Part shown: one piece after another, positions 13,871 to 16,649 of the stretch
Layout: each line of letters begins with the position of its first letter
Position numbering within the stretch: the first letter of the stretch is position 1
NCBI GenBank assembly: GCA_963921275.4
Contig: OZ001293.3
Coordinates: forward strand, 864,001 to 928,000
Reading direction: 5' to 3'
Source of the DNA: an uncultured Hormoscilla sp.
GTDB lineage: Bacteria; Cyanobacteriota; Cyanobacteriia; Cyanobacteriales; Desertifilaceae
DNA length: 64,000 nt
The notes under the pieces: generated by a model
The model's database searches: none
Told to the model about the DNA's origin: nothing
The model's input: only the letters and a program-made list of their open reading frames with translations
Translations under genes and position numbers: made by a program

Positions 13871-16649
<2,779 letters not shown>

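Follow-up and report, generated by a model that had tools for sequence, protein, structure and literature searches.

Our main finding is that the 3' boundary of a family of cyanobacterial group II introns very probably lies four nucleotides past the C-run of domain VI. Three members of this single IIB2-like family, all of them ORF-less, are present in the window (the whole stretch of 64,000 nucleotides from an uncultured Hormoscilla sp. that was analyzed), and we designated them I1, I2 and I3. An adenosine is nearly universal at the penultimate position of group II introns, where its contact with the first intron nucleotide is thought to aid the second splicing step. The deviation in the window copies is a substitution of this penultimate A by C, which leads to a CY terminus, and not a slipped splice site. 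The finding is modest, namely a fresh example of a known oddity and an annotation trap, with no new mechanism.

The state of preservation of the three copies differs. In I2 and I3, domains V and VI match the Rfam model RF00029 above its gathering score of 40 (47 bits at 14104-14027 on the minus strand, last letters ...CCCCGAC, for I2; 44.4 bits at 30803-30879 on the plus strand, last letters ...CCCCAU, for I3), and both introns have all six domains, a perfect domain V and a domain VI with a bulged A. The domain V of I1 was found by a pattern search alone, at 6366-6382 on the minus strand, with 2 mismatches to the 17-nt core. I1 lacks domains II, III and part of IV, the pairs of its domain V are broken, and the copy is catalytically dead, a relic in antisense orientation. 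The assignment to group II rests on the 34-nt domain V with its catalytic AGC and GNRA loop and on the bulged A of domain VI. Reading outward from domain V, the common start of the three introns is GUGCGAUUCGUUC, so that each opens with GUGCG, in agreement with the GUGYG motif. No reverse transcriptase or other intron-encoded protein gene was detected among the larger ORFs of the window, in which the nearby genes include a KaiB-domain histidine kinase. Coordinates are collected in Table 1.

Table 1. Introns, ribozyme elements and host gene pieces in the window
Feature	Coordinates	Strand	Description
I1	6874->6307	minus	568 nt, degenerate copy; end ...CUCGACCCCGACC
I2	14860->14026	minus	835 nt, ORF-less, IIB2-like; start GUGCGAUUCG, end ...CUCGACCCCGACU
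I3	30011->30881	plus	871 nt, ORF-less, intergenic; end ...CUCGACCCCAUCC
I2 domain V	14068..14101	minus	34-nt hairpin, GAAA loop
I2 3' end	14026..14034	minus	branch-point A14034, CCCC 14033-14030, tail GACU 14029-14026
I2 gamma'	14026		U, terminal intron nucleotide
I2 IBS3	14025		A, start of 3' exon
I3 branch A	30873		A
I3 3' exon start	30882		A
I2 EBS1	14539-14535	minus	UGCAC; pairs with GUGUA, the final five 5'-exon nucleotides
I2 delta	14540		U, directly 5' of EBS1
I2 EBS3 (proposed)	14499	minus	U of the A-U-A 3' strand, internal (coordination) loop of subdomain ID; pairs with A14025
I2 gamma (proposed)	14392	minus	A in J2/3, followed by GAU; pairs with U14026
DUF4157 (Pfam eCIS_core) 5' exon	14861..16748	minus	629 codons + 1 nt; PF13699, E=7e-33
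DUF4157 3' exon	13871..14025	minus	2 nt finishing an AAG codon, 50 codons, stop
DUF6399 remnant, upstream of I1	6183..6306	plus	ends ...GRNGY + T of TTG; PF19936 positions 43-79
DUF6399 remnant, downstream of I1	6875..7020	plus	TG of TTG (Leu), SRLHH..., stop; PF19936 positions 81-121

The classification as IIB2-like follows published descriptions. In their accessible text, PMC4649490 and PMC8643678 place EBS2 three nucleotides before helix ID(iv) and have an EBS3 in the ID loop instead of the IIA-type delta-delta' pairing; the former uses the 5' motif GUGCGAUUC for its IIB2 call, and the latter treats IIB2 introns as specific to cyanobacteria and chloroplasts. The window family has the 5' GUGCGAUUC, a stem-less EBS2 before AACCAGCG, and an A-U-A loop that covaries with the 3' exon's first nucleotide. 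As far as the available portions of these two papers go, it thus resembles IIB2/CL2 introns such as the Trichodesmium host intron Tr.e.I7 in its 5' GUGCGAUUC, its stem-less EBS2, its EBS3 and its cyanobacterial host, but differs in that I2 and I3 are ORF-less and about 835-871 nt long.

Evidence for the position of the 3' boundary comes from the exons, from the ribozyme pairings and from the family as a whole. I1 lies antisense to a plus-strand DUF6399 remnant, an orientation that, like the loss of domains II-IV, had escaped the initial annotation. The relatives of this remnant are cyanobacterial and, together with the KaiB-domain kinase gene, indicate a cyanobacterial host. The two pieces of this remnant match consecutive parts of PF19936, which leave exactly one codon across the junction. 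Cutting after GACC (6307) gives GRNGY-L-SRLHH, the motif that the initial annotation had given as restored, and cutting after GAC gives a frameshift. The residue at the junction is Leu in 63 of 63 homologues covering the site (66 were found, three of them without the region), and only the removal of 6307-6874 yields a Leu codon; boundaries one base off produce Trp or a frameshift. Since I1 is antisense, it cannot be spliced from the DUF6399 mRNA, and the junction therefore marks the insertion site and not splicing. The frameshift that had been described for this gene is indeed seen when the cut is made after GAC, but it corresponds to no splicing event, I1 being a degenerate antisense copy in a remnant.

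The DUF6399 gene itself is a C-terminal remnant of about 90 codons, as compared to about 530 amino acids for its full-length relatives. Stops are present in all frames upstream (5470-6180), and the gene was therefore truncated independently of the intron insertion.

I2 is inserted in the sense orientation within a DUF4157/eCIS_core gene, and only this copy can matter for a host gene. The unspliced ORF (16748-14817, minus strand) has intron sequence as its 14 terminal codons and stops at 14817, and the protein in the public database is this unspliced, truncated form. When I2 is cut after GAC, 7 more codons are read before a stop; when it is cut after GACU (14026), the frame is open for 499 or more codons upstream and 51 downstream. 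The frame test thus reproduces the earlier claim of a stop within 8 codons in one case and 51 open codons in the other, and the 5' exon of 629 codons is in frame with these 51 codons only if the tail is 4 nt long. As an open frame by itself is weak evidence, codon usage was also scored in 50-codon windows, using a log-odds table trained on eleven genes of the window. The 50 downstream codons score 16.5 in the frame of the 4-nt register, against -38.5 and -7.8 in the other two frames of the same stretch; control windows give 15.5+-6.5 (n=191) in the true frame and -21.5+-11.6 (n=382) off frame.

Homologue searches with the C-terminal half of the DUF4157 protein retained 1 of 883 candidates, the window's own protein, and brought up no intron-less allele. 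For the 50-residue product of the 3' exon, an exhaustive search gave no credible homologue and a single match overall, to a protein that consists of a 61-residue unit repeated identically in tandem (38% over 26 residues per unit); this match was rejected as spurious. With no homologue of either the tail or the C-terminal half, the exon support for the I2 junction consists of reading frame and codon usage. A large tandem repeat array (16816-18096), with two periods of about 370 and about 291 nt that are each present in about 2.4 copies matching at 96-98%, is located immediately upstream of the annotated DUF4157 start region and overlaps it.

Ribozyme pairings could be compared in seven members with a domain I: I1, I2, I3, three loci from two Hormoscilla genomes (L004, L027 and L036), and one from a Chondrocystis plasmid (L097). 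The consensus fold of domain I comprises 109 pairs, 44 of them with compensatory changes. EBS1 opens at position 5 of its hairpin loop in L097 and at position 4 in the six members that were aligned. In all seven, this opening nucleotide is paired to the final nucleotide of the 5' exon (U-A, U-A, A-U, A-U, G-C, A-U, A-U), and four to six additional pairs follow behind this first one. A shift of the 5' boundary therefore cannot explain the reading frames. EBS2-IBS2 amounts to about 3 bp in the window copies, as against 5-6 bp in the Hormoscilla copies, and the window copies may thus reside in non-cognate or ectopic sites and splice badly. No long frames flank the introns at L004, L027 and L036, where ORF continuity across the junctions was looked for.

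Downstream of EBS1, the consensus fold contains the internal loop of subdomain ID, with A-U-A on its 3' strand; in IIB introns, EBS3 resides at this location. The nucleotide that we propose as EBS3 is U in I1, I2, I3, L004 and L027, and A in L036 and L097. The J2/3 linker after domain II was located by alignment, as minimum free energy folding of domains II-IV gave no usable J2/3; it reads R-G-A-U, where R, the proposed gamma, is A in I2 and G in I3, L004, L027, L036 and L097. An alternative partner for the 3' exon, the IIA-type delta (the nucleotide 5' of EBS1), was rejected, as a U occupies this position in L097 and in all six aligned members, among them L036 with a 3' exon that itself begins with U.

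A register test was then applied to six tail lengths after the C-run of domain VI in the seven members, with EBS3 and gamma positions that were picked post hoc, the covariation being in view, and whose locations fit the known architecture. With a tail of 4 nt, EBS3-IBS3 is Watson-Crick in 7/7 (five U-A, two A-U), gamma-gamma' in 6/6 (A-U in I2, G-C in the five others), and the terminal nucleotide is a pyrimidine in 7/7; the informative changes behind these counts are just two EBS3 flips (L036 and L097) and one gamma flip (I2). With a tail of 3 nt, the canonical one for I1 and I2, the corresponding values are 0/7, 4/6 and 6/7. The other tails give at most 4/7 for EBS3-IBS3, 0/6 for gamma-gamma' and at most 3/7 for a terminal pyrimidine. 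Of the six registers, the 4-nt one alone satisfies every structural and coding test, an outcome beyond what chance would give.

The same boundary emerges from the ends of domain VI, which were available for 13 family members in four genomes: the three window copies, eight from Hormoscilla sp. SP12CHS1, one from Hormoscilla sp. GM7CHS1pb and one from the Chondrocystis plasmid. A scan of genome contigs with the domain V pattern had yielded at least 96 stretches, mostly of non-cyanobacterial classes; among the matches listed, 9 loci belonged to the family, and both intron ends were recovered only in L004, L027 and L036. A plasmid search gave 12 records, none of which covered 80% or more of the intron, and two Crinalium matches were confined to domain V and the first part of domain VI (query 758-810). 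The 13 members share a consensus fold for domain VI, with a GGG/CCC basal helix, a bulged GA and five unpaired nucleotides (C plus four). The distance from the C-run to the boundary is 4 nt in 13 of 13 and the last nucleotide is always a pyrimidine, although one Hormoscilla genome is the source of eight of the ten relatives, which are possibly not independent.

The 4-nt tails are UAAC (six), GACC (two), AUCC (two), AACC, GUCC and GACU. A canonical AC is therefore found at this boundary in 6 of the 13 members, and a penultimate C in the other 7, among them I1 (CC), I2 (CU) and I3 (CC, from AUCC at 30881), none of which ends in AY. As had been noted at the start, I3 ends in ...ATCC in the same register, and every 3' exon in the window then begins with A. 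The initial annotation had viewed the site as displaced past a canonical AY. This part did not stand: the spacing is constant in 13 of 13, six members carry UAAC at this very place, and no AY is present one base earlier in the AUCC and GUCC tails. Generic models are misled by the 'AC' of ...GAC-C/U, which is there by coincidence.

In textbook introns, the branch A is 7-8 nucleotides from the 3' splice site. Throughout the family it is followed by eight nucleotides and is thus the ninth from the end (14034 in I2), which upholds the distance given initially. In the RF00029 consensus, 6 nucleotides follow the branch A and the end is Au, so that the spacing of the family is one or two nucleotides longer than that of Rfam; because of this difference, six against eight, the model stops 1 nt short in I2 and 2 nt short in I3. 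Generic covariance models and the AY rule hence end these introns 1-2 nt early, and joining the exons accordingly frameshifts the host gene. Family-aware boundaries, derived from EBS3 and gamma pairing, mend the annotation.

It could be argued that the introns do end at ...GAC or ...AU, and that the extra base stems from faulty sequencing or assembly, or from a 1-nt insertion that the exon acquired later. The generic Rfam model does stop there, and indels would be tolerated in a pseudogene remnant such as the DUF6399 copy. This explanation is nevertheless very improbable, as it requires the same +1 at two independent loci, where the extra base is C in one case and U in the other; moreover, the U of I2 is matched by its gamma A, while five relatives combine G with a terminal C. 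It also fails to account for a 4-nt spacing kept in 13 of 13 members from four genomes, and in the canonical register EBS3-IBS3 would be Watson-Crick in none of seven. Still less credible is a 3' end at ...GAC combined with a 5' boundary one base upstream, such that the intron would start with A-GUGCG. Removing 6308-6875 should also restore the DUF6399 frame, but the junction codon would become TGG (Trp) where 63 of 63 homologues have Leu, I2 would acquire a TAG directly after its 5' exon, and EBS1-IBS1 puts the last exon nucleotide right before GUGCG in 7 of 7 members.

A different proposal is that I2 uses two sites, one after GAC, giving a short product with a stop after 7 codons, and one after GACU, giving the long product. 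Precedents exist in the accessible text of two reports: B.a.I2 has two alternative 3' sites at a distance of 4 nt, both of which possess a gamma-gamma' and an EBS3-IBS3 pair of their own (PMC4424553), and a C-run at the 3' splice site of RmInt1 reduces fidelity (PMC4238363); the end of I2 (...CCCCGACU, then A) also has a nearby C. At GAC, however, the gamma A would face C and the EBS3 U would face U, so that neither pair forms, and we consider dual usage improbable. What deserves more weight, while still unlikely in our view, is that all three copies are inactive relics whose boundaries record a past insertion by reverse splicing. I1 is antisense, with a mismatched domain V and without domains II-IV, EBS2-IBS2 is weak in the window copies, and the window holds no maturase gene. 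On the other hand, I2 and I3 keep six domains, a perfect domain V and a domain VI with its bulged A, the gamma-gamma' pair of I2 is compensated, and the coding codon usage kept in the 3' exon of I2 suggests translation after splicing. Even if the copies were relics, the position of the boundary would be unchanged.

We therefore retain the boundary four nucleotides past the C-run, for which the initial placement of the I1 and I2 ends one base beyond ...GAC is borne out jointly by the Leu codon (63/63), the codon usage of I2, the pairings and the spacing. The boundary is very probably set by ordinary group II devices: gamma', the last intron nucleotide, pairs with the J2/3 purine (gamma), and IBS3, which opens the 3' exon, has as its partner the proposed EBS3 inside subdomain ID's internal loop. 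I2 would be excised through lariat branching at A14034, aided by a maturase from another locus of the genome, and the predicted DUF4157 protein would be 51 residues longer at its C-terminus than in the unspliced reading. It is conceivable, though we put this forward only tentatively and with more doubt than confidence, that the penultimate A repeatedly gave way to C in a cyanobacterial IIB2 sub-lineage, with gamma-gamma' and EBS3-IBS3 left intact and the branch A one nucleotide beyond the textbook 7-8.

Whether such a variant was already described had been left open. A precedent for the CC end is RmInt1 of Sinorhizobium meliloti, a IIB3 intron of bacterial class D for which, in the accessible text of PMC4238363, mutagenesis is reported: the second step is hampered when the CC 3' end is altered, and fidelity is reduced by the C-run around it. 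Judging from this same text, the window family resembles RmInt1 in its CC end, in a last C that pairs with the J2/3 purine, in an EBS3 situated in the ID internal loop, and in a C-rich splice site. In both, the penultimate nucleotide is a pyrimidine and the site is defined by gamma-gamma' and EBS3-IBS3. The differences, as far as that source extends, are that RmInt1 belongs to another structural class and host phylum, has its own reverse transcriptase, and has C as IBS3, where the window family has A or U. Because the structural class differs, the shared CC end is a common feature and not the result of common descent. The window family would be a second lineage with such ends, and here some close relatives terminate in CY and others in AY.

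For IIB2/CL2 introns themselves, full-text literature searches returned no statement of a 3'-end consensus; the accessible text of PMC8919778, PMC4476101 and PMC3245105 is silent on 3' termini. The earlier question thus has a partial answer, in the CC end of RmInt1. Introns of the B.c.I4 type and B.a.I2 also have a 3' boundary off the generic AY position (PMC4424553, accessible text). Domain VII extensions displace the 3' site by about 50-70 nt in the former, according to the parts of PMC4424553, PMC1865049 and PMC2691827 that were available; per the same partial sources, an extra domain accounts for shifts of 53-70 nt and duplicated pairings for the one of 4 nt. The window family has neither: the domain VI helix is followed by 5 unpaired nucleotides and not by an extra structure of about 50-70 nt, and the site is not displaced from the register of the family itself.

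As CY and AY ends coexist among close relatives with an otherwise identical domain VI, the family offers a naturally occurring test of what the penultimate adenosine does in the second step. If the CY copies splice efficiently, this lineage would do without the contact between first and penultimate nucleotides or have a substitute for it; in the case of poor splicing, the CY end could serve to limit the intron's own activity, as proposed for RmInt1. The second-step role of this adenosine has so far been probed chiefly in ai5gamma, and in RmInt1 (PMC4238363).

Several observations concern other introns and genes encountered in the course of this work. A second cyanobacterial intron family, represented in a Nostoc MAG (L080) and in Rivularia and Crinalium MAGs (L059 and L067), has a domain VI reading ...CAUCGACUC, followed by UAAC or AACC. 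The replacement of the penultimate A by C may therefore be more widely spread among cyanobacterial introns, the boundaries of this second family being putative. The UAAC-ending member of the window family on the plasmid AP018284.1 of Chondrocystis sp. NIES-4102 (L097:1700-2620) lies between two IS66 transposase fragments, overlapping or inverted, which both contain a ...T-K/R-R-K... motif, and the intron is bordered by sequences that make up an imperfect inverted repeat. These surroundings suggest recombination or a complex insertion, not simple homing, and since rearranged IS66 fragments are found on both sides, the locus offers no clean junction test.

In Hormoscilla sp. SP12CHS1, four contigs (L007, L073, L074 and L095) start or end inside domain V, with near-identical copies; the family is evidently multi-copy in this genome and breaks its assembly. 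Nested introns were also seen. In Microcoleus sp. BR0-C5 (L008:3501-3667), a new GUGCGGUUCG start directly follows the domain V of another intron, and in the Crinalium MAG (L067, minus-oriented, starts at oriented 887 and 1495) the insertion lies inside domains II/III of a IIB2-like intron. Finally, between I1 and I2 in the window, an AAA_15/AAA_21 ATPase gene and an adjacent DUF3226 gene (10735-12479, plus strand) form a pair that looks like a two-gene defence-type module.
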